A stretch of 62,803 bases of DNA, the filler included, from Phoronis australis (taxonomy: Eukaryota > Animalia > Phoronida): NCBI GenBank assembly GCA_002633005.1. It is 5 parts of 5 records of this genome, joined end to end, with 100 filler letters (N's around TTAATTAATTAA, not from the genome) between each part and the next. Parts side by side here need not be neighbours in the genome. Positions count along the whole stretch, not along the records: positions 21,346 to 41,923 come from NMRA01001426.1; 4 more parts are not named here. One strand, 5' to 3'. Shown piece after piece: positions 12,035-44,439 of this stretch. The position numbers and the translations under genes are program-made. The notes under the pieces are model-generated. The model was not told the origin of the DNA. It did no database searches and saw only the letters and a program-made list of their open reading frames with translations. Positions within the stretch are counted from its first letter, which is position 1, and the number at the start of each line of letters is the position of its first letter.

Positions 12035-14134
12035 TAAATACTGATCGAAAACGAGGCACACTGATAAAACCTCGTGAGTGATCATCAGCTGGCCATGGTG
12101 TACTGTGCAGTGCCTGAACGTACCAATTCCAGTGATATCTCGTCGGTATCCTTCCCAGGGATATACTTAGCCATTNCCAAATAGATTTGCACCAAACTAT
12201 CAACGCCGGAATGTTAGAGCGAACGATCATAAATCCAATCCACCTCGAGAATAAACCTGTGCCGAGAGAAAGTCAAATGGAAACAGTCTACAACAGGAAA
12301 CTATTTTGCACTTCGCTTCGATAAATTGTTTGATGACATCTTCTACGTTAATGTTTCTGAAGACACTGATCTCAACATCTAGGATACATAGCGCGCTCGT
12401 TGAAACGCCACTAGCGTCACCTTGTGACTGGTCTTTTCTGACACGCGACGAGTGATTTCTAACACCCGCTGACGTGCCAGTGATGCTGTCGGTGTTCTTA
12501 AAGAACCAATCAGTGTTAAGTTTATAAAGCGTGTTGACCAAACCGATGAGATAGTCATGTTCTGACGTGACTGACAATTACAAAGCTGAGCATTTGACAC
12601 AAAGAAAAATATAAGAATGGTCAGCACTACTTCACATAAAAACACAACCTACACAATAGCACTGAGCAAGACTAGTACATCTTCACTGATTAAGCAAATA
12701 GAACCTACAAAGATTCAACAGCTGCTGGCACAGCACGGAGAAAATCATCCAAGGTCACAGACATCAAGTCCTCGTCACTCACAGCGTTGCCCTCGTTTAC
12801 TGGGATAAGCAATCTTTCGTTAATGACATTTTGACTGTACATGCGACTCTAACCCAGAAGCCACCGTTGTACTTTTGCAGGGTGCTACACTCCACAGAGG
12901 TGGATTATGATTCATTCAATTAATTCGAGTGTGAATGTAGGCTAAACTTGTCCCTTTTTAGTCAAATGCAAAGTGGGAGGGCTTATGACCTTTTAGGCTA
13001 GTCAGATTCGGGTCAGTTGGAGCGTAAATTGATTGACATCGAAGCATACGTCATCGCTGACCAAATCATAACTTCTCAGTGGTCGCACAGTAATTGGGGC
13101 GGTAGCTTGACACACTTGGAAAGTACATTTCGAGTCAACTCTGACGCGCTTCGATGACTCGTAACGTGTCAGAAAAGACCCGTCACAGGGTGACTCGAGG
13201 GGCGTTCCATACGCTCAGTGAGTCACGCGTAATTCTGAGATGATTAATATCTAGCGCCAGTGATCGCTCCTCTGAAAGCTCGTTACCAACGACCTATTTA
13301 GTCCTACACGTATCACAATGTAAAAAATGTCATTTCTAAACCTCTGCCATCGTTCTTACTGACCCGTTTCAAGAAAATGGATCAATACGCCTGACGAAAT
13401 GAACAATCCTTGCCCAGACGCGGAACCATGCGTGTATGTCAGTGTCGACTACACAACATGTTAAAGAGATTTGGAACACGAAAAAACAGACTAAATTGCT
13501 TTATTCAAAGTGCTTCACTGCCACACTGAAACAGAATTGAACCTGCTTACGGTTATCATTTTTGCGGGTTTTTCGTAAAAATTTTGAATTTCCATTGATG
13601 TTAAAGCATTTTTCTTTTAGTTTCAAATTCAAAAATAATATGCCAACTGCTCGCCACTTTGTTGGTTTCTCCCACAAGGCAAAGAATGTCTCCTAACTTG
13701 GTCTGGCAAAATGTAGACGTAGCACATTTCCTTAGTATGGAAAATGTGACCGTTGACCTTTGATGTAAACAAAACAATGATGACTTCAAGCAACTGCAAT
13801 TGATGTTGGTTTTCACTGTTTAAAATTAGTCATAAAGATATCGTAGCATTCAAATATATTCTAAAATGCACTAGGGAATTATTTTTGGAAAATTTCTTGC
13901 TTCACTGGCTTTCCTTATACTGTGCTGTCAACCTAAGATTTGGAGTGTGATTACACTAGATAATCTGCCATTAATATCCATCTTGTCAGTCAGATGTTTG
14001 TCGAAATACTGTGAGCGCATACAAGCATATATAATAAGTGGGAGGGAGATTAGAAAGTATGTGGTGACTACAGAGTTTTTTCTTCGCACATATTTCAAAA
14101 CTTTGTGATTTTTTTCTAGAAATTCCCTCACAGA

Positions 14135-15626
14135 GGAAAGTGAATAGTTCTGTGTTAGACGTTGGGATATTGTAATTTTGTCAGACATTGTTCAAAGGAT
14201 ATTTTTGACGAGCATTCGCATTTCGTGCCTCTTTAATTATTGAAAAGTATGCATAGCAGAGAAAAACCAAGAAATCCGTGGGCTGAGGAAGTTTTCACAA
14301 ACAGAGAATTGGTGTAGAGGATCTGATTGTAATACTTTCCGTATCGGGAAACATGCTACTGTTTTTTGTTTTTTGCTTTCAAAAGAGCGGTTGTCATCCA
14401 TGCCAAACTTCAGCAAGAAAGAAGGTTTCTCCACTTGGATAAGGCGAACCAGTGAATACCTGACCACAAGAAAAGCCCATGTCATAAAGATGCATGAGGG
14501 AACATCTAAACCTCGAAGTTCGACTCCACTATAGATAGATGCTGATCTAAGTTCAGTCAACAACTTATAAATGTCTGCTGAAATGAAAGACTGCAAACCT
14601 GAATGAGTTCGGTTCTCAACATTATATTATTTCTGGCAGAACAAAATTTAGAATTTTTGTAATAAAAACCCATCTCAGATCTGTCGTGTCACAAGAGCGA
14701 CTGACCAACCAGGCTTCAATCAGTGAAAAAGAATTTCCCACACCTGCTGTAAAATATGAGGTATTTCAAATTTTTGACGACAGCAGATCTCATTTGGGGA
14801 CGTAAAACTGGTTATTGTGACTCGATTTGCAATTAAATTGAATAAAATTCCTTGCAGTATAAGATTTGTTGATTGTTTAATGTTGAGGTGGTCACCTGAA
14901 GCATTTCGTCTGGGTGTTTATCTTGACAACATAGAGCATATTTTTCAATACGAAAATTAAAGGCTAAATCCAACGGAATTTTGTTACTTTAGACGTATTA
15001 GGCTAACCAGAATGTCCTTGCAAAGATTCTCGCGGTGACGTAGACAAAAACAAGCCAACACGCCTAACAGTTCGTTACATTTGGCAATTTATGGCACAAG
15101 TGGGCTCAGAGCGATGCTCCTAACATACTGTAGGAACCAAATTTACATGTGCTACCGTTGAAGGTAGGCTTTAAGATCACCATGATGCAAAGCTCTGTTA
15201 ATTTTCGTATAAATTCATTATCAAGCGCCACAGGTAAACTATTTCGATGTTTCAACTATGTTTCCAAGGTGAATGAATTCAATCAAATGGAGCAACTTTA
15301 CAGATGGATAAATCGTGAATTTGCACATTTTATGCTAGTTATAACCGGAATACAAAGCATCACTGGTGAATGATATTTTGTGCATACCCTTAACTTAATG
15401 AAACCAGGTTGTACGCTGCTGCATGATAAATTTGTCCAATTTATACAAATAACCCCCAGCATTATTCAAAATGCTGTTGCGGCTCGTAACTTCCTTCTTG
15501 GACACGTCATGTAGATCATCTTGGTACATGTCTTTGCACCCATGAATGAATTTAAGGAAACCAATTTGCATAGCTAATTATTATTTATGGAAATACAGTT
15601 GGACATTATTTAGTTAGAAAGCCCCC
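14135..15626. other. 1492-bp segment present only in the second haplotype copy, flanked by CACAGA direct repeats
   Basis: Copy 1 reads ccctCACAGAaaaattat (10651-10668). Copy 2 has CACAGA at 14129-14134 and 15627-15632 around the extra sequence. No TIR seen. Confidence 0.75.
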
Positions 15627-16523
15627 CACAGAAAAATTATGCAGACACAAATTATGCACGTGAATCAAACAATTGTAATTAATTACAAAGTATCCACAAG
15701 TCATGCAATTCATTATAGTATTTCCACAAATGACACTGTTCACGTAATTACTGAGTATCTTGTTATCATGGCCATGAAAACTCTATCTACATGTATACAA
15801 GCATCACTTAATTACAATTATGATATTCATCCATCAATCACAAATATACTGCTAAGATTTTCGTAAAAATGTCTAATTTGTGCGTACCCTAATGTAGAGG
15901 AATACGACTGCTATTTTGTACAAGAATTCCTTATGTTTTGCGTGTTGACTTGACATAGAAACCAAATTTAAGACTAATCCGAAATCCTAACATCGTTTTT
16001 GGGGTAAGTAATGAAGTTTTCATTTAAAAAGGGCTTCATAAAAATAAATTGAGGGGTTATATTGCTATTAATGTACCCACTCTAAAAATGAAAATTTGAC
16101 TTAAAAATATGGTAACGTATCAATAATAATAGCACATATTATAATTCCATGTTTCTTCTTTCAGAAAATGTGTAATTGTACTTGTTTACATAGCCTGTTC
16201 GAATGGAGTTAAGGTTTGAGAAAACCTTAAGCAGCAGCCTAATCAGCCGACTACAATATACATGTCAACACCTGTTGCCTGAGACAAAGCTCCTTATAAC
16301 GAGCCTGTCTACCATTTCGTTTCACGGTTTTCATACAGCTTTTAGTATGATCTGTTTAATGTGTGCAAAAATGTTCGATGGATCTTCAGCTCTGAGGTGA
16401 TTTATTGACTATTTGAGCTTAGTGTGGAACCTTGAAGAAAGCAGGTTCAAAAAGTTGAATAGTATTTGTCAAACTTGAATAAGAAACCTTGTGAAGTTTT
16501 GACAATTAATTCTGGAGACTCAC

Positions 16524-16845
16524 ATAGACTAGACGGTCTTCGAGAACAGTCTTCTAATTCCCGAAGCCTCGTGGAAGAAAGCGTCGTGTTCTCGGTATGC
16601 ATGTCGGCAACAGTCGAAAACGCGGAGACAGGAAGCACCGAAGATAGCTTTGATGAATTATCCCCAGACTTGACTTGATGGTGAATTGCGTGCTTAGAAC
16701 CAATCGCCATCTTATGAATTTTGAAGACCACCTCATAACCTTGTTTTAAACGCAATCTATCTTCCACGAGTAGAGTACTGATATTGTTGAGGACGGCAAA
16801 GCTTGCTACCAATAGAACAATCTTGATAATGGCACTCCTTTTCAT
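16524..16845 (-). CDS. GT7 coding exon 1, duplicate (haplotype) copy
   Basis: Protein identical to 11550-11871, with the same donor site. Confidence 0.7.
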
Positions 16846-17129
16846 TGCAATTAGCTTGACCTGAAATTCCGAGTAACCACAATGTCATGTTAGCATTCGC
16901 CAGCCAGCTAGTTGTATGATGACTAGCGCCAAAATACATGTAGAAATCGATGCGTGAAAAGTTTGCATTCACCTATTTCACGAAAGCGCCATCTTCCCGC
17001 GCCATCTTTAAATACTGATCGAAAACGAGGCACACTGATAAAACCTCGTGAGTGATCATCAGCTGGCCATGGTGTACTGTGCAGTGCCTGAACGTACCAA
17101 TTCCAGTAATATCTCGTCGGTATCCTTCC

Positions 17130-18870
17130 CAGGGATATACTTAGCCATTTGCCCAGTCGCCAATGCGAGTAAAAATGGTGCTGGGCGAGTAGAAGTTGAC
17201 TTGCCGGTCGCCCGGTGGCGAGCGAATAAGAGCGCAAAAGCGCTATATATCGTTTCCCAGATGAATATGAATAATTTTCCTCCTCCTTGTGCTGTTTTTA
17301 TCATGAATTTAAGGTTCAGTCGATGCTCCGGCAGTAAAAAACATCGGCGCAGTGCGACCCTACCGATTCAGTACATGTCACCCGTTACGCGATTCGTCAA
17401 AAAACACAGTGTGTGGTCGTGCACAAAGAATTTGTGGACTAGTCCGAAACGAAGAAAAAGGGAGAAAGGAAGAAGACTGGTCCATGTGCTCATACCAAAT
17501 AAAATACCATATTTCTTGGAAGTGATTTCTTATTGTAATGTACAATGTCATTTTAGCCAAAATTATTTTTATAACATTCGTCCTGATAAGCGTCCATGCC
17601 CCTATAAGCGTCCCCACTCGTTTTCAGACTTCGCTAAAATAAGCGGCCAGTCCATGAATGTGTATATATCAGTGCGAAAAATGTCTTACCTAACAGTTCT
17701 AAAATTCTACAGTAAATGTATTCAATTTATCAATAATATCCGACAGTTCTGAAAAATCATTGTGCGCGTAATTTCTAGTAGACCACGAGCCTCGCCGCCA
17801 TGTCGGTATTTAGCCGTGGCTGTACACTTCAAACCATTCCGCAGTGCTTCAAAAAGAACGCAAAAGATTTGCTGATCTTGCGCGGAGGAAAGTGTCACAC
17901 TACATGGTCTGGCCCTGATCAGAACAGACGCAGCGAACTCAGGTCAACGGGATTGGTATTGTATCTTTCCCGTACAGATCTTCTCCCACAACAGGAATCC
18001 AGATTGTTTGTACACGAAAAATTATAAAAACCGCGAATCGAAACTTGGCCAAGAAGCGCGCGCTAGGACCCACATATAACATGTGGTCCTGCTCAATGAG
18101 ATAAATGGGGTGACATTGTACAGCTCATTGGGCCTGCTACTCTGGCAAATGAACACTGATGACACGCACGCGCTAGCTCACTCGGTGCACACCAGCTGAA
18201 TTACTTCAATACAAACGTCACGTGACAACAACATATGTGTTCGTCCAGATTTTTCTCGTTGCGGGGTGCGATCTAGCGCAGATTTTGACTTAATCTGCGG
18301 TTAATCCCGACTCCGAGTCCACAGGAACTTAAGAATCTTAGGAAAGACTATTTGGGAGGATTTCAGGTAATTTGAGTCGAAACTATTTTTACTCAAGAAT
18401 TCAAGTTGTCCTATCGACGATCGCGAAGCAGCGACGCATCAGTCGGCAAGTTTTCGCCCTGGGATTTCAGCACATTTTTTTAAAAAGATCGTAATTTAAC
18501 AACAGAGTTTGATAGCAATGCACCACAGTTTTGTAGCTAGTCTGTCATAGGTTACACATACGTCACAGCGCGTAAATTTGATGAATCCTAGCTTCCGATT
18601 TCACCCATTTCGGAGACCAGGTTTTAACTGCCGTAGGCTACAAAAAGAGTCTACCTGTGCGCTTATTAGAGCGAATACGGTAGCCCTAATAGATGGTGAC
18701 ATCAGTGCACGAAACGATGATTTTTATTTAAATTAGCAGCAAGTTTGTGGTGACTGGCGCCAACGGCCGGGTGACCGAACTTCGGGCTTGGCGAGCAGAT
18801 TTTCTGGCTCCGGCACTCGCCCAGCTGGCGAGCAGGGTTTTTCAAGACTAAAAGCCTGGGTATATCCCTG
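17130..18870. mobile_element. Non-autonomous hAT-like element, 11-bp TIR CAGGGATATAC
   Basis: CAGGGATATAC at 17130-17140 and GTATATCCCTG at 18860-18870, with subterminal TCGCC/GGCGAG motifs at both ends. The TSD is only partial (atccttcc vs acttccac). Confidence 0.65.
17572..18682. mobile_element. Tc1/mariner(pogo)-type MITE nested in the hAT-like element
   Basis: Right end GCGCTTATTAGAGCGAATACGG|TA (reverse TA|CCGTATTCGCTCTAATAAGCGC); degenerate left end ATTCGTCCTGATAAGCGTCC...CCTATAAGCGTCC. Confidence 0.5.
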
Positions 18871-26050: not shown

Positions 26051-27608
26051 CCCCTGGTCTCACAATTTTCAGCCCTTATCATAAACAAAATCTAACCTTA
26101 ATAAACACCAGGCTAATTGTTGACAGACACACCAGTCCCATACTCCAAAACCACAGTTGAATGAATGGAACTACTTTTCAAGACCAGCTGCATCAGTGTA
26201 ATAAACAATTTGAGGGATATGACCCTAAAGGACACCGAGTTTATAACCTTCTGTGACAAAGCCAGTGGGAATGGATGTACAAGTGAGACAACTGGGAGCA
26301 CATTTTTATGTTATTCTTGATACAAACATTAAGCAAAGCATTGCAATATGCCAATGTACAAATTTCAAAACCAAGATATGAAATCACTGCTCAGAAAGGT
26401 CCAAGAAATGACAATAAAATCAAAGACCACTTGCATTTCTATCCAAGTAAGCCTAAATAAAATAAACAATCAAGGTTTCTCCACTAGTTTATTCAAGAAA
26501 TAGTTTGCAAACAGCAATGATAGACAATTTGATGGACACGTTGGAGGAAAAGAGTACATTATAAGACTTCAACATGCAGTGGAGTTAATTGAATACAATA
26601 ACAAGAACATCATGAATCAAAATGAACGATTCTATTCCATGTATTTAGAAGTCACAAGCAAGGTGTGATGGCTCAAGCTAGACACGTAAGCGATGCAAAC
26701 ATTGTGAACTTCTCTTGAAGCATAACTTGGGCTAGACAGCGAGCATGATATCATTTTCAAACTTACTCCTGATAAAACAGCATAGAGTAAATGCCCTAAA
26801 ATTTTACTGTAGAAAAACAAAGCATTTACTTAAACAAAACAACAAATTGGCTTAATTGAGCCAATCGTGACAAGTGTCAACAGTTATATATATGGTGTTA
26901 GTGTAATGTATACACACATCAGAAACATGTCGGAGTTACTCTTTGAATAAGATCAGTTTTACAAAAAATACAAGTCTTCAAAACTGTGTCATTCAAACAC
27001 GAATTAGATAGAATACAGCATGTTAATATTCTTTCTGCGCATTCTCACTTGTGCACTGTCAAACAGAAAGCAAATGCTACAATATTGGTGTGCCTGCCAT
27101 TCTGTTAATGGTCATCTGCCTGCTGCAATGGTTCTATGAATGAGTGAGCAACATGCCAGCCTGTTTACTACATAGATAAACAAAACATCATATCGATACC
27201 AGAAAGCCACTGGAAGTTACTAACTGAACAGATAAACAAAACACTTAACACACAAATTATCTGAAATCTGTCAGCCACTTACATGTAACACTTAATGCTA
27301 GCATAAAAGTAAATTCAAAATGAACAAGGTGATTTCATGACAGCATTTACCAAATTGTATATCTATCTCAGTGGGCCTTTTTTGCTTAGATAACCTGATT
27401 TGTTCATTGACAAACTACAAGAAAACAAGAACTTAGAAAACCTGTCATGCTGGGCACCAACACGCGGGCTGAGTGATTTTAGGGTGAATTCAATCAGATC
27501 AATAGATCAAAACAAACTTAAACAAAAAATTATGCTGATAAAATTTATAGTACTGTTGTGCTATGCAAATTTGATTTAAATGCAAAAGTTCCTGATCTAT
27601 TGTACATC

Positions 27609-30600
27609 TCAACGGACTTGTTTTTTTTGCTTATATAACCTGATTTGTTCATTAGCACTTTTATATAGAGTGGCGTATTCTGCTTTCTCTTCAACAGTAA
27701 GATTTTTAAAAGATTTTTGTAGCTTATTAAATGTCCGTCTTTTGCTTTCAAAGTTACCGCTTGTTGATACATGGAGCTTGTCCAGGTTGAGCATAGCATA
27801 GTAGGTACATATATTGTTTGGTATTTTGGGAATTTTGCCTTTTCTTTTCTGTTTCTGTTGTTTTAGTTTCATTAATGAAATGAATTTTTTGCATGACCAA
27901 AGTGTTTTTTATTTATAGAAGGCTCTTTAGAAACTTCAGAATTCAACTTTTCCAGACAAATGTGATAGTTCTTGAGATTTTTAGTCGTGTTTTCTTCAAT
28001 AGAATCGTAAACAAAGGAGTAGGAAACAATCGGACGACCACCTCGAATTGTCACTTTTAAGGCCAGGGGATACTTTAATTTGCTTTTATGGTAATCAAAC
28101 ACAACTACGATTTTTTTAGTTGATCTTGAGTTAACGAGAGATGGTAGAGTCTTGCGAACTTTGCCACCATTTCCTGTAATCATTGAGTGGACCTCATTTT
28201 GCGTTACCTTTTTCCCATTAAACCGAGAAGCACTGCCTACTAAAAAAAAGCTTAATCCTTTAAAACAGTTCTGAAAATCAAGTTCTTTTGAGTGCTGACT
28301 ATCATGAATGCGTGCCGAAAATGCTTTCCCTGCATGCTTAAGAATAGCAATGATTCCGTCTGGATATGAATGATTGTCAAGCAAGGGTGGTGGGATTTTT
28401 AACTTTGTCCTGACAAGATAACCACGCCATGTCTTTTGGATCAACGATGCTGACTTGTGTTTTTTAACATAGAGGTGAAACTCAATAGTAGCATCCGAAT
28501 TTTTTTCTTGGATGCCATATGCAAGTTGCTTATACATATTACACAAAATATTGAGAATGGGATCTTGCTTTGTTTTATCTCCATGGCGCGTGGTGTGCTG
28601 AAAATAAAGACAATTATGGACGTAGTTTAGGTGCTCTCCAGCCTCAGCATGAAATCTCGAAAGTGGAAAATCTAGTCGTCGAAGAAACACTGGGCCATAA
28701 TCTATGAATTTGCACATATATGGGGTGATGTTCCGCCATGTGTATCATAAACAACACAGCTGGTAAAAACGCTCAGCGTGAAATATGTATTTTTCAATAA
28801 CTTCGTCGTCATATCCAAAGACATAGTCCTCTACTTTCTCCAAACCCACGACTCTTCCTGAAATCAGTGTTGGGTCAGGGTCACTTTGTAGAATTACAAA
28901 CATCTTATAGAGGCTTTCAAAAATCATTTCTACCAACTGAAATTTTGTGATTACTTCGGGTAGGTTAAGGTAGTTCTTAACATTTTGTGGAAATGTACAA
29001 TTCACTTGTCTGTCTGAAACCACGTTTTCCAAGACATGACAAAAATGCATTCCTGGAGGAGATGAAGCAATAATAGCTAGTGCTGAGCCTTTATTAAGAA
29101 AAACAGGTTCTGCCCGGCCAGTTTTATCAAACAAAATTCTAAAATTGCCTTGTCGTACATGTCTTGCGTTAATGTTCGCCTGCAAATTTGAAATGAGGTC
29201 ATTGCTGGAAATGTTGATTTCTGTTTTATCTTGATTCAATTTATTAGCTTCAGAAAATATCAATTCAACTTCTAAGTTAACAAGTTTCTCGACAATTCTA
29301 ATAATACCATGAAGAACACAGAATAATATGTGGTCTAGAGGGATTGATGGGAAAATACTATTCGGCAGGTTGCGATCAAACCTAACAGGCAAGTCAGTTC
29401 TAAAACCAGTAGATGCAACTACATGTACACTCTTTTCAATAAGCTTTGACTTAGAGTAAAGATTCGAACCATCATCTGAAGTGGGACTCATTTCAATGTT
29501 ATCTGATATTATGTTTTGAAGGAACATGTGGTCCCCACACAAAAATAGTTGGGTGGAACCCGGGAGATTTTTCGCAAAAGTTTCAATAAGAGGGGGCTTG
29601 GTTAAATTTTCTTCTAAATTATCACGTGAATCAGACTCGTAACAAATAACTACGGGAAAAACAGCTCGCGGATCGTGATAGGATATGTTCTTCAAAAGCA
29701 AATCATGATTGATCACCGAAATACCTATAACAAAACTTTGTCTCCCACCTATTTGACGACCATCGCCCCAGAGCCTCAAGGCAAAACCACTTTCTTCCAG
29801 TATGAATGGGTACTTGTATTTAAGTAATTCAAAAAGCCTCCCAGGATCAATAGTCCAACCTGTAGCCGTTCGCCGTGGAAGTAATACTGAAGTAAATGCT
29901 TGTTGGTAATCTTTTTTACAAATTGCCTCTTCTTTCCATGAGGGCATTAGGTCTTTAAATTTTGATCGAAAGGCACTAGTCAACCTTTGGCCAGATACGT
30001 TCTCTTCAAAATAAATCAAATCTTGGGCTGAAAACTTTATTTTGTTTTTTAAAAAAGCATTCATGGCAGACATTAATATTTTCTCTTTTGAAGCACAATC
30101 AGAGATAATAGTAAAAAGCTGATAAAGGTCAGATGTATCAAGAATGCCATCAAATTCATTGGTGTCTTTACTCTTTTTGCGAACATCCACCATTTGGCTA
30201 AATGCTTTGAAAAATTTGGAACTATGTTTAAATTCGTTATTAACAAAAGTAACAAGTCTGTTTTTGACGAATTATATGTACCGGTTGTTTGCACCTTTTC
30301 CTGTATGTAATCACCAACTGCTATCTTCTCAAGAACTGACAGTAAGTTAGACTTCAAAATTATACTACTATTTTTGCTGCCAAGCTTACTTTTTTCAGAT
30401 ATATGTAGAAAAGCCATTATCCAAATGTGAGAAATTGTTTTATCAATGATTGATATGCAGTCATTCAAATCAAAATTGTGCTTTCTAAAAATTTTTTCAA
30501 CGCTCTTATAACCCTGCCGCTTCACATGTTGCACTAAATCAGGATATAAATCAATCGGAATGAACAACTTCTGACTTTGAAGTTCCACAATACAGTAATG

Positions 30601-30839
30601 TTCCCAGCCATTTAGTGTCACTAGCCTGGTTATGTATGAAGTGTTGTCGGTTCATTCTGACGCTGTCTTGGGCTGAAGTTCCANTGCACTAAATCAGGAT
30701 ATAAATCAATCGGAATGAACAACTTCTGACTTTGAAGTTCCACAATACAGTAATGTTCCCGGCCATTTAGTGTCACTAGCCTGGTTATGTATGAAGTGTT
30801 GTCGGCTCATTCTGACGCTGTCTTGGGCTGAAGTTCCAT
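27609..30839 (-). pseudogene. RAG1/Transib-like DDE transposase with C-terminal IQ motif, BRCT domain and HMG box (disrupted)
   Basis: Collinear ORFs 30073-30621, 28745-30193, 27872-28717 and 27609-27872, joined by two frameshifts and one in-frame TGA (28745-28747). Motifs: LRLWGDGR (D 29762-29764), LCGDHMFL (D 29531-29533), FCVLHG, YIFHAERFYQL..*YTWRNITPY...AEAGEHLN (E 28634-28636). IQKTWRGYLVRTKL at 28400-28441, BRCT-like ~27960-28270, HMG-like 27609-27840. Confidence 0.78.
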
Positions 30840-30859: not shown

Positions 30860-31967
30860 TCTACACTGTCACATATGAATCAGTCCCAGTTCCTATTTAA
30901 AGTGCCTAACCAGCTTTCAAGTGAGACATGCAGGGTGCAGTATTCTAAACATGGAATTCCAGGACCTAACTGCGGTCTTGAAGCAATATTATACAGCTGT
31001 TACCATATGGCTCATGACCCTTATTTCACTTGTTTACTTCAACCTAGTTAAACAAGGATGTTTCGGAAGTTTAATTGCACATAGATATAACCAAAGAAAA
31101 GTCTAAGTGGGAGAAAACACAATGATGATGACAGCAAGAAAACGTCCAAAAAAGCTACAAATAGATTCCTGCTATTATTCTATTAGTTGGTCACACGCAT
31201 TTTGATAGTTGCGCAATGAAAAAAGTTGCATTTTAGCATGAGAAACTTGGAATATATCATAAAAAATGCATTTNGACCCTTATTTCACTTGTTTACTTCA
31301 ACCTAGTTAAACAAGGATGTTTCGGAAGTTTAATTGCACATAGATATAACTAAAGCAAAGTCAAAGTGGGAGAAAACACAATGATGATGACAGCAAGAAA
31401 ACGTCCAAAAAAGCTACAAATAGATTCCTGCTATTATTCTATTAGTTGGTCACATGCATTTTGATAGTTGCGCAATGAAAAAAAGTTGCATTTTAGCATG
31501 AGAAACTTGGAATATATCATAAAAAATGCATTTTCCCAAGCTGTACGTTCCTCTCGGTTAGCGTCAGTCTCATTTTTGGATGTATATAGCTTTTTCACCA
31601 ACTTTAATTACCTAAAGTGCACAACAAACCTATTGAGGGTGTTTATTTTTATAGTTGTGCCAAAGTGGGGAAGTGATTGAATTTATAATGAACAGGAAGT
31701 TTACAAATCAAAATGAAAAACTTAGTCAAAACTGAATACAACGATAATCACATTGACTCATTGGGTTAACATCATCTCCTCCATGCTGATAACCTACAAA
31801 CACTGAATGTGATACCACTGAGTACAGGAGTTATGTAACTTAAACTTCCCAGAAAACAGCGTTCCATCAACTTTAATCATTTCCTCTTGCCTCCCACAAA
31901 CAAGATCAAAATAAGATGACTGTGGTTTGAAATTATTAATAACGTTCAAAAGTTTTAACAATGCTCT
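30860..31967 (-). pseudogene. Two degenerate PHD-finger-like remnants upstream of the transposase ORF
   Basis: From a tgtag| acceptor near 31967: ...LVCGRQEEMIKVDG...SCTQWYHIQCL*, then DYRCIQF in a shifted frame. At ~30860-30955: CLEY-(fs)-HPACL...NWD*FICD-(fs)-CR. Several ligands are missing and frameshifts are needed. Confidence 0.4.
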
Positions 31968-32865
31968 CTACAGAAGGAAAAACAATCATCACACAATGGC
32001 AATTCCCAATCTCTCTGAGAAAACTGCGCCACAGCCTAGTTTAACTGTATATGATATCAACTGTCCTAGGACCACTAATGCTCAAAAAGTATCTTAGTTG
32101 ATCAAAAAAAAGTGTTGAGACATTGTGGACAAAATTATAAATATTCTTATCTAGATCATTAAGGTACCTTAAATATAAAATCTATTATGGTACATGTCTG
32201 TCAAGAAAACTCATTTCCATCCTGTTCCATTTAACACATGATTTAACTTAACACATGATATTACTTCATGATAGAAAGAGCAAACCTACGTAGAAGGCAG
32301 GCTGATACATTATGAATAACTTAGGCACAAATTATACTAGATTGCTCATTAATTTAAGAAAAATGCGGCTATTTGAAAAAATGAAACTAACTTATGTAGT
32401 GATTGAAATACTTTTGTTCATATAGACCTTTGTTAAAAATAATATTAGATATGGCATTGTGACGTTGTGGACCCAGACAAATAAAATTGAAATACCCCAA
32501 TTAAAAACACGAATACCAAATATACCAAATATTCGTAGCACTTTGAAAATTATTAACAACCTATAGACTCCATCAATCTCAACCATTCCTAACTCTTCGG
32601 GCGTACACAGTCGCTACAACCGTTGTCAGTGAACGCTGAATAATCTCAAGACGTAATATTTGTAAAATTTCCAAATTGTGAAATCCCAAGTGGCTACCTG
32701 AATGGGAAAAATGTGAGGCAAACTATACACTTCTATTTTTATTTACGGATTCAAATCGCGTCGTAATACTGGCAGATATATCATCACTANTTCTAGGTTA
32801 TAAACAAAACCTGAGTATGAGGGCTTTGCTCATGTAGCTGGAGACCAGGCGAGCTTTTCTCATGC

Positions 32866-34785
32866 AACTTTGAGGCTTAATAACTCCAAATTGGTTGCAG
32901 GTACGGTCTTTAAATTCAGCATATAACTTTTCACAGTATATAAATTTTGATTGGTTATATAAACATATTTCATATTGCACCGGAAGAGGTCGTTTGGTGC
33001 AAAGGTCATATAATTTTCAAAATGCTACTCCTTCAGTTTTAAAGCTATTTTTTTCAAGTTCGGTGCACAGGTATAAGTCAGCATGACGATTAAAAAAATT
33101 ACTTTTCTAAGTAATCGGGTCATCCGATCAGGTGAAATAGGTCAAAGGTCATTAGGTGCAAACTGAAATTTTGAGCTAGACACTTCCAATTGACAGGTCT
33201 GATTGCCACTGGTAAATCAAATCGGAATCCAAAGTTTCAGGTCATTTAGTGCAATTCTGGGGTCATTGGGTGCATTTTTCTTCTGAAAATTTGACCTTTT
33301 CAATCAGCAAGTATTCTGATATGTCAACCGTTAGACAACTGTGATTCTCAGCGTTAAACACGTTTTTCATGGGCTTTGCAATAATTCTCCTAAAGATGCT
33401 TAAAATGCACCGGATCAGGTCAATTAGTGCAAAGGTCATGTAACGTTCAAAATGTTATATCTCTTACGTTTTTCAAGGAATTCTTTTCAATTTCAGCACA
33501 CTGGTGTAAGTCAACATGCCAATTGAACAACTTACATTACTTCGCAATAGGCCTAACCAATCAGAAAAAATAGGTCAAAGGTCATTAAGTGCAAACTAAA
33601 ATTTTGTGCTAGAGACTTCAAAATTACATATCTGTTTACTAAATGCGATTGAGTTTGAATTCTAATTGTTTGGGTCATTTGGTGCACCCATGGGGTCATT
33701 AGGTGCATTTTTCTTCTGAAAGTTTGACCAATTCATTCATGTTGTATTCTTAAGTGCTTAAAGCAAAACATTTGTGATTCTTAGCATTAACCACACTTTA
33801 AATTGGTTTTACAATTATTCCCTCATCGGGGTTCATAATGCACCGGAAGAGGTCAGTTAGTGGAAAGGTCATCAAAATATTAACATGTAATTTCTCATAC
33901 AATTTTAAAGAATTCCTTTTCGTATTTGTAAACGGGTTGCTATCAGTAACTTCCCTTAACAATTCCTTTAATACACACGCGCAGAGTCCATTATTGTCAC
34001 GCGGTGACAATAATCTTTCTAGTTCTTCTTATTCTTCTTATTCTTATTCTTCTTCCGACCAAATTTGAGGCTTAATAACTCCAAATTGGGTGCAGGTACG
34101 GTCTTTAAACTCAGCATATTACTTTTTACAGTATATAAATTTTAATTGGTTATATAATCATATTCCATATGGCACCGGAAGAGGTCGTTTGGTGCAAAGG
34201 TCATATAATTTTCAAAATGCTACTCCTCCTTCAGTTTTAAAGCTATCATTTTGAAATTCAGTGCACAGGTATAAGTCAACATGACAATTTAAAAAATTAC
34301 TTTTCTAAGTAATCGGGTCATCCAATCAGGTGAAATAGGTCAAAGGTCATTAGGTGCAAACTAAAATTTTGAGCTAGGCACTTCAAATTGACAGGTCTGA
34401 TTGCCACAGGTAAATCAAATTGAAATCCAAGGTTTCAGGTCATTTAGTGCAAACATGGGGTCATTAGGTGCATTTTTCTTCTGAAAGTTTGACCAATTCA
34501 GTCATCTTGTATTCTGAAGTGCTTAAAGTAAAACATCTCTGATTATTAGCATTAACCACACTTTTAATCGAGTTAACAATTACTCCCTCATCGGGGCTCA
34601 TAATGCACCGGAAGAGGTCAATTAGTGGAAAGGTCATCAAAAATTAATAGTAATTTCTCCTACAATTTTAAAGAATTCCTTTTCACATTGGTAAACGGGT
34701 TGCTGTCAGTAACTTCCCATAATAATTCCAGTAACATGCACGCGCAGAGTCCGTTATTGTCACGCCGTGACAATAATCTTTCTAG
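32866..34785 (+). mobile_element. Two head-to-tail Helentron-associated (HINE/DINE-1-like) elements: ~32866-34022 and 34023-34785
   Basis: Each ends with subTIR CGCGCAGAGT, hairpin (A/G)TTATTGTCAC-N3-GTGACAATAAT (33990-34014; ~34753-34777) and CTTTCTAG|TT. Internal ~430-bp repeats are rich in GGTCAAAGGTCA, and a TCT/TAT microsatellite lies near the 5' end of the second copy. Confidence 0.75.
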
Positions 34786-35024
34786 TTCTGATTATTATTA
34801 TTATTATTATTATTACTATAATTGTTTTTGTCATTCTTCTTGTTGTTCTAATTCTTCTTATTATTATTTCTAGTATTGTTCTTCTTATTATTATTAGTGT
34901 TATTATTATCATCATTACATTTTATTCTTATTCTTATTCTTGTTATTATTCTTGTTGTGGTTGGTTTCTTAGTTTCTTGTTTTCTTGTCCTTGTTATTTA
35001 ATGATAGTAACATGTCTTTTCCAG

Positions 35025-35315
35025 TTCCAGACAACATAATTGCAGCACCAGCTATAAGTGATGTCAAAGCCAGGCAATTCATAGTGTCATGGAACATAGT
35101 CTTGTGTAAAGATATGAATGGAGAGTTCACCAATTACAGAGTCATGGTAACTGATCTGACAAACAATGAATCAGCTATTTACAGCAATGACACAACTAAC
35201 GTGAATGTGATTGGACGGCGACCATACACGCACTATTCAGTAGTTGTTAAAGTGTGCAATGTCATTGGCTGTTCCAGTTATGGGGATGCCAGTACCATCA
35301 CAACTGACCAAGCAA
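35025..35315 (+). CDS. Fibronectin type III exon A of a receptor-like protein (RPTP/RTK-type ectodomain)
   Basis: PDNIIAAP...FIVSWNIVLCKDMNGEFTNYRV...GRRPYTHYSVVVKVCNVIGCSSYG...ITTDQA. ttttccag| acceptor, |GTAAGT donor, 291 bp, phase 1-1. Confidence 0.88.
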
Positions 35316-35420
35316 GTAAGTTTTGACGTGGTATGTCATGAAATTTTGTTGTGCACTTTCGTACATATACATGGTACAATACACACTAAAAATAAGCAGA
35401 GTGTCACATTTTCCCAAGGA

Positions 35421-35668
35421 TTGGTGGGCACATCTCATCACTGACTATTGGTAATAGCTATTGGTGTGTACATCTCATCACTGACTATTGGTAATAGTTA
35501 TTGGTGTTCACATCTCATCACTGACTATTGGTAATAGCTATTGGTAAGTACATCTCATCACTGACTATTGGTAATAGCTATTGGTGTGTACATCTCATCA
35601 CTGACTATTGGTAATAGCTATTGGTGTGCACATCTCATCACTGACTATTGGTAATAGCTTTTGGTGTG
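35421..35668. repeat. 40-bp minisatellite, 6 copies
   Basis: CATCTCATCACTGACTATTGGTAATAG(C/T)T(A/T)TTGGT starts at 35431, 35471, 35511, 35551, 35591 and 35631. Confidence 0.95.
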
Positions 35669-37699
35669 ATGATGAACTAAAGACTGGTTTGAGTTAAATC
35701 ACTTTATCGATCTCGACTGACCATACTGGTAATATCTGCTTTAATCTCTGATGCTGCTACTAATTGCTTCAAAACCTTGACTTGTGATGAACTCTTGTGT
35801 CAACAAATGTCCGACTCGTTGGTACATTAAACATCTGTATGCTATAAACATTCCCACTAAATAAAATTGGCCCAAACCCTGCCTATAAGGGTAAACGGTG
35901 GTGTTTGGCAGATCGAACTAGACCGTATTTAGCCACCTTGGCTGAGTCGCGCTCTGCTCACGATCAAAGGGATGCTGCCAAGCTGCTCTATTCATCGAGT
36001 CACGAGCGAGGATAATTGGCTTCGCTCACGTGGATATGATCAGCTGATTACAATCTAGCGTAGAAGACTGTACTTTTTATGGAGAGAGTTTTACGTTTTT
36101 ACTGTTATATCTTAAAAGAGGAGCGAAAACAAATATGAGTACAACTTTGAATTTTTCAAATCGGCCCAGGATAAGAGATTTTGCAACACAGCAACAATCA
36201 CGATTACTTTCATTGGGCGCGCACGAATACAAAAATATAGGACCCAAGTTATTTAGGTTTTGGAACACATGCATTGCAATATTCAAAATATGTTTATTAT
36301 GAATCTTACACGCTGTAAAATGACGTTGTTTAATTTCATTGTGCTCATTCATTGTCGTCCGTCAAATCGGAAATTTCCGAGATGTGAGTCTGCGGCGTGC
36401 GCGTATGTGTACAAAACACGTGATGTTATGTTCCTGAAGTACGAACATTAAGAAACTTTAGCATGCCGTTATTATTGACAGGGACACGATAAAACGAATT
36501 TGGATTTTTGACTATAGTCTTGATACAGCGAGCTGGCTGACCACTGCATCAGTGTCTCCGTTAGACCCAGAAATTTCACACAGCCCGGGTCATTCAGCTC
36601 GTCACCTCGTCCCCAACATGTAGATCGAGCCTTGGACTATTAATGTTTCACTTCGCGGTAGAGCTAACGACTGTCGGCCTGTGCACACAAAATCTGTGAG
36701 TTAATCGGCACTCTGACCTTGCACGTTGCAGCCGTTTAAGTGAAAAACAATCTAGTAAACGGTATTTTCTTGCATAATCCTCCGCCTTTTGTAACAAAAA
36801 AGTCTATCGTCGATGACCCACACATGCACGCTCCGGCACTCACTAGTGGTATGTGCTTCCTAAGTGGGTCAAATTCCAGGGAGCATAAAGTTACATGTGA
36901 CGGGAATTTGGTTCATTAGGGACAGGTCTAAAACGATTACTAGTTGATCCATCCCTACAAATATGTCGGGTTGATCCATTTTCTTGACTTGAGAGTGGTT
37001 ATAGCTTTCCCTACAAATATGGTGGCTTGCTGAGAGGGAAATTTTTGCACTGATTGCGTAATTATGCTTTGTTGATTGGATTAATATTTAAGTTGTAATC
37101 TCAAGTTCACTCTAGTTGAAGTACATGGTCTCCGTGGAGCGCACTGAATATCAATTCAAGCAATTTCGCTGACACACAACTGTTTCATAACTGTTCAAAC
37201 CCAGTCACTTTCCTTCAACCAAAATGTGGAGGAGTTTCAGCTTGAATATATAACAGTCTGCTTGGAACTCAATTTCATTCTCGTTGAGAGTTGCGGATGT
37301 ACAAGTCATCTAATCGAGCTTGTTTATTACAAAGTTCATCCATTTCCATGTGATAATGTCCTATACTAACAGCTTGAGCAATGAATTTCATGGCAAGCCA
37401 TATTTTGGAAAATATATTAAAATAGTTAGGCCATCCCATTACACTTGGAGTCTGTTTGATTGGTCGCTTACACCTTGGCAATTGTCTCCCTCACATTGCT
37501 TGTTCATTTAAGTCCGTATTCGTCTCAAATAGTCGAGTTCGCACACTTTGAACTAAAAACTCGTTGAGTGGCAAAGTTTCTTAATTGTGCTAGAACTGAA
37601 ATAACATTTTATTTCAAGATCAGGTCATTTTGCGTCCACGCCACTTTGACTTGATGTCCTCCAGTTGATACTAGATGGATCTCTCACACTCTCAGATGT

Positions 37700-38655
37700 A
37701 ACTTCCTCCTGCATAATCCACACTCCTGGCTGACTGTTAACGAGTTGTGTAAAGAGAGACCGATCATTTGCTAACTAGTTTAGTGATGAACACAAAGCTA
37801 AACACTCTTACATCGACACTGAGCATACAGAGAACTGAAGTGCAAGGACACCTGGCAGTGTATATGTAAACTATACTAGCTATAAATATCCCCTTTGCTA
37901 AAAAGAAGAAAACTCATGTAATATCAGTTTTCATTCAGTCCATGAAACGAGAAAATCTTACAACAAATTAAAGTAAATATCTAACATAGTCCTTGAAACG
38001 AACTGGTTCATGTTGTCCAGAGGGTCGAGTGTGAGTACTGGTATCATTTGTAGTAGTCGAATTTTCACACGCATCGGTTTCCGGGATACCTAGAGCGATC
38101 GGTTCCTCGAAATGCTCTTTAGGGGATTGCTCAATGTCCAATCGGATATGATGATGGTTTCAGACATAATCGGCTCGGAGGTGGCTACGAATACGGTACG
38201 AGCGATCCTTTAGTTGTTTGGCGTCTACTCTTCTGTCCCAATATTTACTGTTGGTATGCTGAAAACGCACTGGTTGACCTTCATCACGAACAGTTAAATC
38301 CTTAGCATGCCTATCATATTGTGAACACTTAATACGGTCGTGGTATTTTCATTGCTTTCCCACATTGACATTGGGTTTGCCATCACCATGCAATGATGGA
38401 ATATGCGACCTGGTTTGTCGACCGAAATCATTTCTGCCGGACTTTGGTTGGTTTGTTGCCACGTTGTATTGCGCAGTTCTAATAATGTAAGGTATTGGTC
38501 GGAACCATCTTGAACACATTTGTTATGAGTCTTAATGATTTTAACTCTAGATTCCGCCTTCCCGTTAGCTTGTTGGTGTCCATGGTGCATTCCCCTGGTC
38601 GTAGCAAATTGACGAATTTCATAACCCGTGAACTGTGTACTGCGGTCGGACACAA
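37700..38655 (-). mobile_element. Gypsy/Ty3 LTR retrotransposon 3' remnant (integrase end, PPT, probable LTR)
   Basis: SDRSTQF..YEIRQFA...HQQANGKAESRVKIIK...DGSDQYLTLLELRNT...SPAEM is an integrase core. Terminal PVRFKDYV at ~37985-38008 and purine tract AAAGGGGA near 37890. LTR limits are uncertain. Confidence 0.85.
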
Positions 38656-39136
38656 TGCGTGCTAAATGTTTCTTGCAATTGTATTCCTACTTTGGTTCTT
38701 AATGGCAATTTGTTTTTTTTTTTACGTTTACCTTTGTATCTTTGAAATTTTGAGATGGATTTTCTGAAATTTGGCAAATAGCTTTGAGAAACGACGACAG
38801 CTTCCCATTTTCAGATGGGTTCACTGTATTTTGTGCCCTCTAATGGCCAGTTTTATGACTAAAAACTCTTCTAGAGGCACACCGTTTGCGGTGCAGTCGT
38901 GGGTGCATTTCAACGCTCGATGTTCCTCTTGGTCATTTTCTTAATGATTAAGTGATTCACATGAGATCAGAGTTTGAAATGTCAGATATAGTAAGTACCA
39001 GGGAAGGGCTATATAGACATGAAATTTTGAATGCTTTGCCTGGTGCACATTCGCCTTAACATATGTTATAAACGTGAAATTATCGTAAATCATTTTATGT
39101 GCATCTGGCACTAAAAGTTTCAGTAATGTGTTCTGA

Positions 39137-39457
39137 TGAGGAACGCTGTATATATGAATTCATAATTTGAGTACCAGGACCTGCCGAGGAACACTGTAGA
39201 TATGATATGAAACAAAATTTATGCACAACCCCCTGTCAAGGAACACTGTATATATGAATTGATACACACTTTAAGTACATGCCCTGTTGAAGAGCACTAC
39301 GTATGAATTGATTCATTATTTCAGTTCTGGGACATGTTGAGGAAGTTGTTTTTCAGTAATTGATACATAATTTCAGTATGATGCTCCTTATACACGAACT
39401 TATTCTGGTGCTGGGTCCTATTGAAGAACACTGTATTGTGTGAATTTATAATTTCAG
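39137..39457 (+). repeat. Degenerate ~50-bp tandem repeat derived from the FN3 exon B splice-acceptor region
   Basis: GA(G/A)GAACACTGTA...TGAATT...TAATTT(C/G)AGT..C.GG..C.GTT units are repeated immediately before the true acceptor at 39457. Confidence 0.6.
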
Positions 39458-39772
39458 TGCCTGGCCCTGTTGGAAATCTGGAAGTCATTTTACAGAGTGC
39501 CAATTCAATTATAGTATCCTGGAGTCTCCCAGATATTCCAAATGGTGTCATCACAAGATATCAAGTTGAACATAAGTTGGTTAAAAGACTGTCCTGCCCA
39601 ACCATCGTAGTCGAAGACAGTTATGATATTAGTGAAACACCAAATGCAGGAACATTTCAGAAGGTTCTTGGATCACTTGAGTCGAACGCTTACTATAGGA
39701 TAAGAGTCAGAGCTTTCACGATTAAAGGTGGAGGGAGCTACCAGGTGATACAGAGACATACGTCAGCAACAG
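39458..39772 (+). CDS. Fibronectin type III exon B of the same receptor-like gene
   Basis: PGPVGNLEV...SIIVSWSLPDIPNGVITRYQVEH...LESNAYYRIRVRAFTIKGGG...HTSAT. atttcag| acceptor, |GTTTGT donor, 315 bp, phase 1-1. Confidence 0.9.
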
Positions 39773-40029
39773 GTTTGTATGAGAAGTGAATGATGTTGAG
39801 TTGAGGGAACAGTGAAGTAAAACAATGTCAGTTCACTTTGTAATGTTATTGAGAAATCATCCTACATAAATGTATGACTTAAGTTGACTTCAAATAGAGA
39901 AACATTGTTCCCATGCTATTTGCCACCCAAAGCGTTTAACCCGGGAGCACAAAAATCAGAGGGTGAGCGTTTGTTGAACAAGGGTATTTAAAAACAATAT
40001 ATTTTAAAGTTATGAGCACGTACTCCAAC

Positions 40030-42580: not shown

Positions 42581-42629
42581 GAGTCTCGAGTCAGTCAAAG
42601 GAGTGGCATGACATTGAGAAAAACCAACA

Positions 42630-42876
42630 ATGGAGGCAGTAAACGCTCCAAAGTTAGCGAGTTCATTCTTTTTCGCTTACTTTTTGCTATCACTAGTGAT
42701 ATTTTGTTCAGCTACATATACTCCGTGTCGTGACGCCACAGAATGTGACCAGTTGACCTACTTCTTCTGTGACACCGGTCTGGAAGTCTGTGTTCACTGC
42801 AGTGGACGATGTAGCCTAGCCAGGCTGAAAACAGCATCACAGACGAGAAGAGACAAGTGTGAACTAGAATGTGCAG
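42630..42876 (+). CDS. Grindelwald-like single-CRD TNF receptor, exon 1 (signal peptide + 8-Cys domain)
   Basis: Hydrophobic leader FFFAYFLLSLVIFCSA, then C-x5-C-x7-C-x6-C-x2-C-x3-C-x15-C-x3-C. Donor G|GTAATT. Confidence 0.75.
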
Positions 42877-43519
42877 GTAATTATGATTGGATACATATTC
42901 AGAGCAAACGTATTATATTGTTCATTAAAATAAGTTCAAGATCAAAAGGACTCTTATACCCTGGTCCGCGATGCAGTGACCCGGCAGCCAGTGTGGTCGG
43001 CGGGTCGTAGAAAATGTTGTAGCATATTGTGACACACAGATGAGAACGATATTACTGTTCAATTTGGTTATGAAACATTAGAAATGTGCTGCATAGTTTT
43101 TGACAAAAGTGTCAATAAAAACTTTGAAACAGTGCATATAACGCCGAAAAAGAAAATAGGTTATTTTCGAAAACTATCACAGAATTTTTAAAATCTCACT
43201 TTAAACATTTGTATCAAATAAAGCTTGATCATGTTTGTGATACCGTTGTTTTCCTATCAATGTGTCGTTTTTTGCTAAATTTAACGAAAAAGACATGTTT
43301 AGGAGACCCAATTAATAACAGATTGGTGAAAAGTCAATAAAATCTATAGTTTTGTGGATATTTGGCTGAATGCATAGACATAGCATATTCATCTCAGTAG
43401 AAAACAATTAGCCTGCCAATATAAGCTGAGAACAGCTGTCTGGTGCTGAGCGTGTAATGTGCCATGAACAATAAGGTGCGCGTAACTTGCCTAGAAAATT
43501 ACCAGCATTGTGCGCAGTT

Positions 43520-43573
43520 TGTCTGTCCGTCCGTTTGTCTGTCTGTCCGTCTGTCTATCTATCTGTCTGTCTA

Positions 43574-43608
<35 letters not shown>

Positions 43609-43610
43609 TT
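43520..43610. repeat. (TGTC/TATC)n microsatellite
   Basis: Direct reading. Confidence 0.9.
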
Positions 43611-43980
43611 TAGTCTGTTAGTCTCTCTGTTTATCGGCGCGCCTGTCCTTATGTCTGTCTCGATCGGTTTATGTATCTATCTATCTATCTTTCGCTGGCT
43701 ATTGATTTGTAAAATAAACCACACCGGAACTGCACATAAATACTGCAATTCTTGATCTCTGTCTCATCACTTGCCCAAAATTGTTCCCGTCAATTTCCTG
43801 TGAAGATGTGCGAAATAATAAAATGGTTGTTTTTGCCATTTTCCTCTCATTGCATAGTATAGTATGACCTTTCGTAGGAGACTATTCGGTCGGCTAACTC
43901 AGTGCACCTGGTGAAAAATAGACATCCACTTGCATTTGACGCTCAGTTCAGTTGATTTTTAATGTCATTCTTTTTTTCAG

Positions 43981-44073
43981 ATTACATGAATGAGCAGCGC
44001 AAAGCGACAACGTCTGTACCATCAACAATCGTGACCCAACTGAAGGCTGGACCACGTTCTTCGAATCTCAAGG
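43981..44073 (+). CDS. TNFR-like gene exon 2 (S/T-rich stalk)
   Basis: tttttttcag| DYMNEQRKATTSVPSTIVTQLKAGPRSSNLK |GTGAGT. 93 bp, phase 1-1. Confidence 0.7.
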
Positions 44074-44439
44074 GTGAGTCACACGTCATCTATGAGATTT
44101 TTTTGCGTTCATAGTGCCCTAAGTCGTAAATATCAGTATACATGTAGTATACAAGCCACGTGTGACTGATCCAACCACGCGATCAACTAAATCAATACGT
44201 CAACAACTGAAGCTTAGACGTTTACGTAGGCGCAAAATATGTCAAACTGCTTCCTCTCTGTGCGTCATTGTCGATTTTTTAAGTGATTATGATCATCAAA
44301 CGTCCACAGGGCGTTGGACAAAAGCAACACTCGTCTCCAGGCAATGCTTATGTGAATCAAAAACAAAATAAGGTCAAAGCTTTATCAATGCAAATTTGGG
44401 ATGTGCCTAGTAATGTTGTGTATGAACTTGGAATCTTGC

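Follow-up and report, generated by a model that had tools for sequence, protein, structure and literature searches.

The RAG recombinase depends on host HMGB1 for DNA bending and on host end-joining factors for sealing of the breaks, and fusions of Asp-Asp-Glu (DDE) transposases to a ubiquitin/SUMO protease or an HMG box occur in Zisupton/KDZ, some CACTA, MuDR and Ginger, where the protease is of the Ulp1 or OTU type. Two zinc motifs, C(2)C after the second catalytic Asp and H(3-4)H before the catalytic Glu, are given as defining Transib, RAG1-like (RAG1L) and CMCT elements in PMC12730594 and PMC1131882. Here we describe a transposase gene on the minus strand of a 62,803-nucleotide stretch of Phoronis australis DNA (assembly GCA_002633005.1; hereafter the window). 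We read it, with a probability of about 0.8, as a copy, truncated at the 5' end and broken recently, from a multi-copy family of DNA elements. On this reading the family's transposase combines a predicted RAG1/Transib fold, without the zinc ligands of those enzymes, with fused IQ, BRCT and HMG modules, and the elements likely move by cut-and-paste while their own HMG box bends the DNA.

The catalytic core and the missing zinc ligands

Four minus-strand open reading frames (ORFs), at 30651-30073, 30271-28745, 28744-27872 and 27908-27609, make up the gene in the window. Residue numbers refer to P0001, a protein of 798 residues read from 30268-27875 with X at the in-frame TGA, and conservation is counted in rows of the family alignment. 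The features of the core and of the modules that follow it are:

28493..29995, minus strand: predicted catalytic core of RAG1/Transib fold, spanning P0001 residues 92-592 and matched to residues 476-1007 of mouse RAG1 (AlphaFold2 (AF2), Foldseek and VIA-align)
29762..29764, minus strand: first catalytic Asp, D169, in 63/67 rows, on the first RNase H strand (E163-173)
29531..29533, minus strand: second catalytic Asp, D246, in 70/71 rows, at the end of strand E240-245
29309..29311, minus strand: H320 of a C/DxxH motif, in 74/77 rows
28634..28636, minus strand: catalytic Glu, E545, in 91/94 rows, in helix H542-558
28397..28459, minus strand: IQ motif (Pfam IQ E 1.6e-5 on the window ORF, above the gathering cut-off)
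27962..28267, minus strand: single BRCT domain (Pfam BRCT_2 E 7.9e-9 on the window ORF, above the gathering cut-off)
27615..27863, minus strand: HMG box, closest to the non-sequence-specific class (C-terminal family profile A3 against PDB sequences)

The AF2 model of the core, built from 150 sequences, reached a predicted local distance difference test (pLDDT) score of 90.8 and a predicted template modelling score of 0.88. Foldseek ranked RAG1 first for this model (E 1.1e-8), with HzTransib at 1.7e-6, and every row listed above rank 50 was RAG1, BbRAGL or HzTransib. Residues 92-592 could be placed by VIA-align on RAG1 476-1007 with a Z of 16.1 and a root-mean-square deviation of 3.8 Å over 406 aligned residues, the Z for both BbRAGL and Transib being 14.4. 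A wider structural search of 48,161 chains returned RAG1 and BbRAGL at 14.5-15.2, apo Transib at 8.9 and the P-element transposase at 8.8; hAT/Hermes, CACTA and other transposases were not among its best 50, which is no exclusion of them. The predicted model superposes on RAG1/Transib as an RNase H core with a large helical insertion, and the nearest named Atlas clusters were DUF1280 and RAG1, both at 0.94. The link to RAG1 is based on predicted structure and language-model features, the core being undetected by Pfam on the window core, by phmmer against the PDB and by profile searches of the PDB.

All three catalytic residues are intact in each of the 35 rows that span the three columns, and in P0001 they are spaced by 77 and 299 codons. 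H320 is likely the equivalent of RAG1 H795, a residue named as part of the active site in PMC7204232. Much of this had been proposed in the initial annotation of the locus: its four collinear minus-strand ORFs, joined through two frameshifts and an in-frame TGA (28747-28745), were confirmed; every motif that it quoted is present; its candidate DDE triad, with the same spacing, is the conserved one; and its LH motif is likewise supported. The core is predicted to have the RNase H/RAG1-like fold that the annotation expected, as judged by AF2, Foldseek and structural alignment. By fold and triad the element is predicted to work like RAG1/Transib, and on this model RAG-type chemistry of the transposase is quite probable.

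The zinc sites tell a different story from the fold. C(2)C after the second Asp was found in 0/61 rows spanning residues 246-320, and H(3-4)H before the catalytic Glu in 4/80 rows, none of them at the homologous, conserved PYMxKxxD site. Because these ligands are missing we do not place the family in Transib, RAG1L or CMC, so that the earlier description as a RAG1/Transib-like transposase stands for fold and triad but not for membership. The same residues bear on whether we are looking at an ordinary member of a catalogued CMCT lineage (Transib, Chapaev, EnSpm, Plavaka, ESTA or Lanisha), or of a Repbase family, that has acquired accessory domains. A RAG1-like fold would be expected of such a member, DUF1280 is carried by one of the Atlas neighbour clusters, and the CA..TG ends of the relatives described below occur in CMCT lineages, PlavakaB ends reading CATCA in PMC12730594; the terminal inverted repeats and target-site duplications of Transib are moreover labile, according to bioRxiv 10.64898/2026.08.26.747230. 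The C(2)C shared by all those lineages is nevertheless missing from 61/61 rows, scans of the relatives gave no Pfam CACTA, Plavaka or KDZ family, and neither BRCT nor HMG occurs in the main text of the RAGL, Transib and CMCT papers searched for them. We therefore consider such membership very unlikely.

Fused modules and element structure in relatives

A word-based search gave 7 clusters at 37-45% identity, and an exhaustive search gave 315 representatives (clusters at 50% identity) at E<=1e-3, with 77 at E<=1e-30; 150 of the 315 are listed. Four of the 7 word-search clusters hold 7-13 members each on separate Mb-size contigs, and copies are 96.5-99.7% identical within the three clusters compared. 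Among 20 representatives looked up, the named hosts were Holothuria leucospilota, Glandiceps talaboti and Anneissia japonica, that is, echinoderms and a hemichordate. Their proteins are annotated as hypothetical, uncharacterised or 'BRCT domain-containing', because Pfam misses the core. On stand-alone contigs of 5-13 kb there are several relatives that are intact and have no introns. No longer forms (1,996-5,000 residues) were found, which is weak evidence, and no relative was found in prokaryotic genomes.

Full-length relatives (about 1,500-2,100 residues) are built, in this order, of a USP-fold peptidase, a repeat region, small domains, the DDE core, IQ, BRCT and an HMG box, and intact relatives keep this order instead of ending before the C-terminal modules. 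The IQ motif continues the long helix that leaves the core in the AF2 model (H592-622). It is present by a strict definition in 33/78 rows and by a loose one in 47/78, its losses fall in several branches of a quick-method tree of 44 family rows, and it is the weakest module. The BRCT domain has yeast ligase IV as its best sequence match (3.3e-5) and TopBP1, 53BP1, BRCA1 and Rev1 as its best structural matches (Z 12.4-12.7, with the TopBP1 BRCT at 12.7), which fit DNA binding and protein binding alike. A BRCT match at E<=0.1 was obtained for 33 of the 41 long or C-terminal representatives chosen from the 150 listed. For the HMG box, profile A3, made from 20 sequences with the window ORF included, matched Nhp6A (6.3e-8), Abf2 (2.7e-7), TFAM (7.5e-7), HMGB1 (1.2e-6) and SOX17 (1e-3) in the PDB, the HMGB1 chains of RAG complexes being among the matches. 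The HMG-like ORF of the window alone had no Pfam HMG match; in the locus L019 Pfam HMG_box_2 is above cut-off.

The N-terminal domain of full-length relatives is predicted to have a USP-isopeptidase-like fold (model pLDDT 89.5) with the SUMO isopeptidase USPL1 as its top structural match (E 5.5e-12). The catalytic His is present in 12/12 rows and the Cys in 10/12, the remaining two rows beginning after the Cys site, and relatives combine the predicted USP fold with catalytic Cys, His and Asp. The C-terminal profile matched 60 of 195 stored family proteins and the peptidase profile 24 of 195, mostly fragments, counts that include the proteins from which the profiles were built. Since BRCT, C-terminal and peptidase matches recur in relatives, the fusion belongs to the family as such and did not arise from the way in which frames were joined. 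The IQ motif, BRCT-like domain and HMG-box-like helix set of the initial annotation thus hold up, and its core-IQ-BRCT-HMG architecture is present but incomplete, as relatives add the peptidase, a Tudor-like second gene and CATTAC ends. The combination of USP with IQ-BRCT-HMG is the distinctive part of the family.

Some variation around these modules was also observed. In P0065 (Glandiceps talaboti) the peptidase is immediately preceded by a ubiquitin domain (Pfam E 7.5e-9), and P0010, P0018, P0030 and L008 carry long lineage-specific tandem peptide repeats between peptidase and core, where several contigs break. The loci L016-L019 form a distant AT-rich group (GC content 0.25-0.28), homopolymer-rich and with the gene in pieces, that keeps core, BRCT and HMG; their composition would suggest a non-animal host.

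We recovered 25 metagenome loci, most of them short and referred to by L-numbers. Inverted ends in relatives read CATTAC-N9-12-CATTGA. They are paired in L012, with CATTAC starts at 791 and 10069, and L013, L021 and L001 carry this motif as well; CATTAC was read at five end sequences, at which no heptamer starting CAC of the recombination signal sequence (RSS) type was seen. The ends of L001, L012, L013 and L021 have 5'-CA..TG-3' termini, and none were found for the window copy. A variant right end, CATTTC...CATTGA, lies at L003:7239 (minus strand), 3.3 kb past the transposase stop. Most relatives are intronless; the gene is intron-split in the lineage of L012, L013 and L021, whose spliced forms L005 and L015 resemble.

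In L012 the intron-split transposase gene is accompanied by a convergent ORF of 421 codons with a weak Tudor/Agenet match. Matches of the second protein are weak and Tudor-type (Pfam Agenet/Tudor E 0.0018; PHF20L1 Tudor E 0.0055), with no kelch match; it has 41 homologous clusters, the one named source being the coral Desmophyllum pertusum. L001 assembles as a 13,083-bp circular path in which the two element genes are the only genes; the transposase frame reads on without a break through the overlap. At L001:6369-6409 two 21-bp family-type ends stand head to head with one base missing, the palindrome arms measuring 20 bp as compared with a best of 9 in 30 shuffles. This joint resembles a V(D)J signal joint, although a tandem pair would give the same picture. 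L001 also has a 40-bp inverted repeat (6997-7036/11928-11967), which we rejected as element ends, since the second gene starts inside it; it brackets that gene, with the other arm just upstream of the transposase start, and could be an inversion relic or an invertible segment.

A circle with only two genes, together with the intact intronless relatives on stand-alone contigs, raises the question of whether the family is mainly a circular, roughly 13-kb episome or virus-like element that integrates only occasionally. The ORFs listed for L001 include no replication or capsid gene, IMG/VR viral contigs contain neither a relative nor the joint patterns, and no viral structure reached a match at E<=0.001. 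Introns occur in some lineages (L012 and L021 as compared with the spliced L005 and L015), a head-to-tail tandem pair or collapsed repeat accounts for L001 equally well, and circles are described as dead-end by-products of excision in PMC6943129. We regard an episomal lifestyle as highly improbable, the least probable of the explanations that we weighed, and the element is very probably a transposon.

State of the window copy

The DNA contigs X1, X3 and X4 of the species all come from one sample, S1, and RNA reads come from X5, X6 and X7. The gene in the window has the following further features:

27545..30651, minus strand: transposase gene with a 5' truncation as compared with the family; the window haplotype is broken, and the S1 DNA contigs have 1,033 open codons
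28745..28747, minus strand: TGA that stops the window haplotype early; the DNA contigs and 7/7 X6 RNA reads have a sense codon there
27545..27620, minus strand: C-terminal tail, out of frame here through an extra base at 27621; a YN motif is common to relatives at this place
30286..30645, minus strand: one copy of a small domain, with weak tblastn matches to relatives (E 0.001-0.86)
30530..30839, no strand: 155-bp tandem duplication around the N at 30684, an assembly artefact skipped by contigs X1, X3 and X4
31015..31533, no strand: 260-bp tandem duplication around the N at 31274, an assembly artefact skipped by contigs X1 and X4

The two duplications are taken as artefacts because the DNA contigs of the species skip them. 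The small domain is repeated 1-3 times ahead of the core in full-length relatives, as judged by eye; in the window copy it has no significant Pfam match, nor has the upstream ORF. A TGA at 30809-30807 lies ten codons past an ATG at 30839, with no variant among those listed for the DNA contigs.

The stop and both frameshifts of the window haplotype are missing from X1, X3 and X4, as are the extra base at 27621, which shortens the C-terminus, and a 6-base insertion at 29420. A single X3 contig covers 27624-31020 with, by arithmetic, 1,033 open codons. The window haplotype is dead and the DNA contigs of the species are open-framed, so that the earlier verdict of 'pseudogenised' is true of this haplotype only. 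Over the listed variants, and excluding position 28077, which derives from other repeats, the contig has the residue favoured in the family at 13 of 14 amino-acid differences (p 0.002), and 5 of 20 codons differ synonymously as compared with an expected share of 0.28, which is neutral. RNA reads from two other samples match the S1 contig at nearly all covered sites; X6 has its own 2-base deletion at 28754 in 7/7 reads, the base at 27884 is present in 0/2 X6 reads, and another four amino-acid changes are seen in X5/X6. Changes private to the S1 contig are nearly absent, silent and flanking sites included. Several alleles or copies are thus in decay, their intact ancestor being about 1% away, and S1 may have one intact haplotype or its contig may be a majority path over haplotypes; the contigs fit both.

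Several observations weigh against reading the locus as a member of a RAG1-type transposon family. The identity of the core to RAG1 is 9-13%, and Pfam RAG1 was reached by only one scanned relative, below cut-off (E 0.0024), and by none in the other scans. No CACTA, Chapaev, Plavaka or KDZ transposase is among the structural matches; none of these is known to have a solved structure, so equal closeness to them is compatible with RAG1 as the best match. The IQ motif is missing even by the loose definition in 31/78 rows, some of them incomplete. No target-site duplication was seen at L012, which alone among the loci has its two ends and two flanks and which may be a chimeric assembly. The second gene is found in 4/25 loci (L001, L009, L012 and L013), of which L012 and L013 are one element, in three layouts: convergent, downstream on the same strand and upstream on the same strand. 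The joint is known from L001 alone, and its circular closure lies inside a tandem repeat. At the window copy, profile and Pfam scans gave no peptidase and no second gene, loose matches to the end motif (4 and 3, with shuffle means of 2.5 and 3.7) are not above chance, and the depth of the locus contig equals that of its flanks (22.3-22.5 and 22.3-25.4 in X1). A 27-bp inverted pair at 26035-26061/32841-32867 (78% identical) was considered as element ends in the window and, being unlike the family end, was not accepted.

The flank-like contig depth, the 1,033 open codons in S1, the missing ends, peptidase and partner, and low RNA with first mates mostly on the plus strand would together suit a single-copy RAG1-like host gene that was domesticated and has lost these parts, the window holding a null allele of a locus whose intact allele is functional. 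Plus-strand first mates correspond to sense RNA of a minus-strand gene in common stranded libraries. The X6 deletion and the four X5/X6 amino-acid changes imply, however, independent null alleles, and the near-absence of private S1 changes is better explained by a majority path or a young copy than by purifying selection over a long time. RNA records are few (32, 59 and 14, with 17, 20 and 13 of them fitting in part only), and RNA is as deep in the flanks as over the ORF and, in X7, without reads on the core; the records over the locus showed no splice joints and established no start codon. Domestication of the window locus is possible but unlikely, and a broken copy of a transposon family remains our preferred reading.

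The surroundings of the gene were also inspected, and the fn3 and PDZ exons among them mark the host as an animal. On the plus strand lie host exons with two fn3 domains (34973-39789), a cysteine-rich exon with a signal peptide followed by a transmembrane-like exon (42618-47286; TNF-receptor-like by eye, without Pfam support) and a PDZ host exon (59181-59489). On the minus strand, ORFs of a membrane-anchored protein are duplicated within 8773-17367 (8773-9123 equals 12227-12577, and 11473-11910 equals 16447-16884), which may be a tandem duplication or an assembly duplicate, and 38294-38686 holds an integrase-like fragment (Pfam rve, weak, E 0.037). A very high-copy repeat with a 433-bp period occupies 32865-34800, with a contig depth >1,000 times that of the locus, and is abundant in RNA.

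Mechanism and comparison with known systems

On the predicted structure, the transposase would pair both ends, and D169, D246 and E545 with H320 would nick the flank and close it into a hairpin, so that the element ends are blunt, as in RAG/Transib. The bend that host HMGB1 gives to RAG would be supplied in cis by the fused HMG box, a likely step, if a little less so than the chemistry. The single BRCT would hold DNA ends or repair proteins at the break, recruitment of repair proteins being a tentative suggestion, and the excised element would occasionally be sealed by end joining into a signal-joint circle. The peptidase might strip SUMO or ubiquitin off the transposase or nearby chromatin, and the Tudor protein might, like the PHD finger of RAG2, read methylated histones. 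The least certain step is calmodulin control via the IQ motif, calmodulin binding being slightly more doubtful than BRCT recruitment. We infer these steps with support that falls from nick-hairpin excision through HMG bending, BRCT binding of ends or repair factors, de-SUMOylation or de-ubiquitination and Tudor histone reading to calmodulin binding. Because intact, young, multi-copy members exist, the transposase could be assayed: with an HMGB-class box and BRCT in cis on a RAG1-fold enzyme, cofactor contributions could be tested by domain deletion or swap, as could whether excision can be steered to signal joints over re-insertion.

Among the full-text literature matches listed, none describes this architecture or a CATTAC end, supplements, Repbase, Repbase Reports and Dfam lying outside that search; that the family is already catalogued in Repbase, Repbase Reports or Dfam is unlikely, with a real chance nonetheless. 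It is plausibly a new lineage at the superfamily level. A RAG1-type fold kept in the absence of the zinc site that was supposed to define it alters the way in which CMCT/Transib elements are to be recognised.

With RAG1, ProtoRAG and BbRAGL the family shares the predicted core fold over residues 92-592 (Z 14-16), and with RAG1/RAG1L the D-D-E triad on RNase H elements with a conserved His, two-gene elements with inverted ends, and an end-to-end joint resembling a signal joint. Variable orientation of the second gene is likewise known from RAG1L, AanRAGL having it on the same strand (PMC9435367). Unlike RAG1/RAG1L, the new family has no ZnC2/ZnH2 ligands and no CCGHC tail, and its sequence identity to them is 9-13%; its N-terminus is a USP-fold peptidase (an eraser), whereas that of RAG1 carries zinc fingers and a RING (an E3 ligase), and its C-terminus is IQ-BRCT-HMG. 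The partner is Tudor-like where RAGL transposons have a RAG2-like kelch-PHD protein, and the ends begin CATTAC where those of RAG/RAGL are of the CAC(A/T)GTG type. Transib (HzTransib) has in common with it the fold, the DDE residues, a long insertion that separates the second D from the E, and ends starting CA. Its D-to-E distance, however, is 206-214 residues in PMC1131882, as compared with 299 here, and the new family lacks the SxxCxxC motif and the CACAATG heptamer, shows no target-site duplication at L012, has a protein three to four times longer and adds a second gene. The CMCT clade as defined by Kojima 2025 (EnSpm/CACTA, Mirage, Chapaev, Plavaka, ESTA and Lanisha) also has CA..TG termini, a RAG1-related core and an accessory second gene; the new family differs in missing the defining C(2)C and H(3-4)H and in giving no Pfam match to the families of that clade, and is set apart on motifs. 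Compared with the transposons fused to an isopeptidase or HMG box introduced at the outset, its protease is of the USP/USPL1 fold and stands with BRCT, IQ and HMG on a RAG1-fold core. Taken together, these comparisons allow a tentative proposal, which we hold with rather less than even confidence: an undescribed superfamily-level sister lineage of RAG1/Transib, made up of zinc-free two-gene transposons that are widespread in marine invertebrates and probably beyond animals, with an HMGB-like bender, a BRCT adaptor for repair, an IQ switch and an eraser of SUMO/ubiquitin joined in a single polypeptide, a histone-reading Tudor protein as partner and excised ends sealed into V(D)J-type signal joints. 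If true, such a lineage would be a self-contained analogue of RAG1, the RAG2 PHD finger, HMGB1 and the end-joining machinery.

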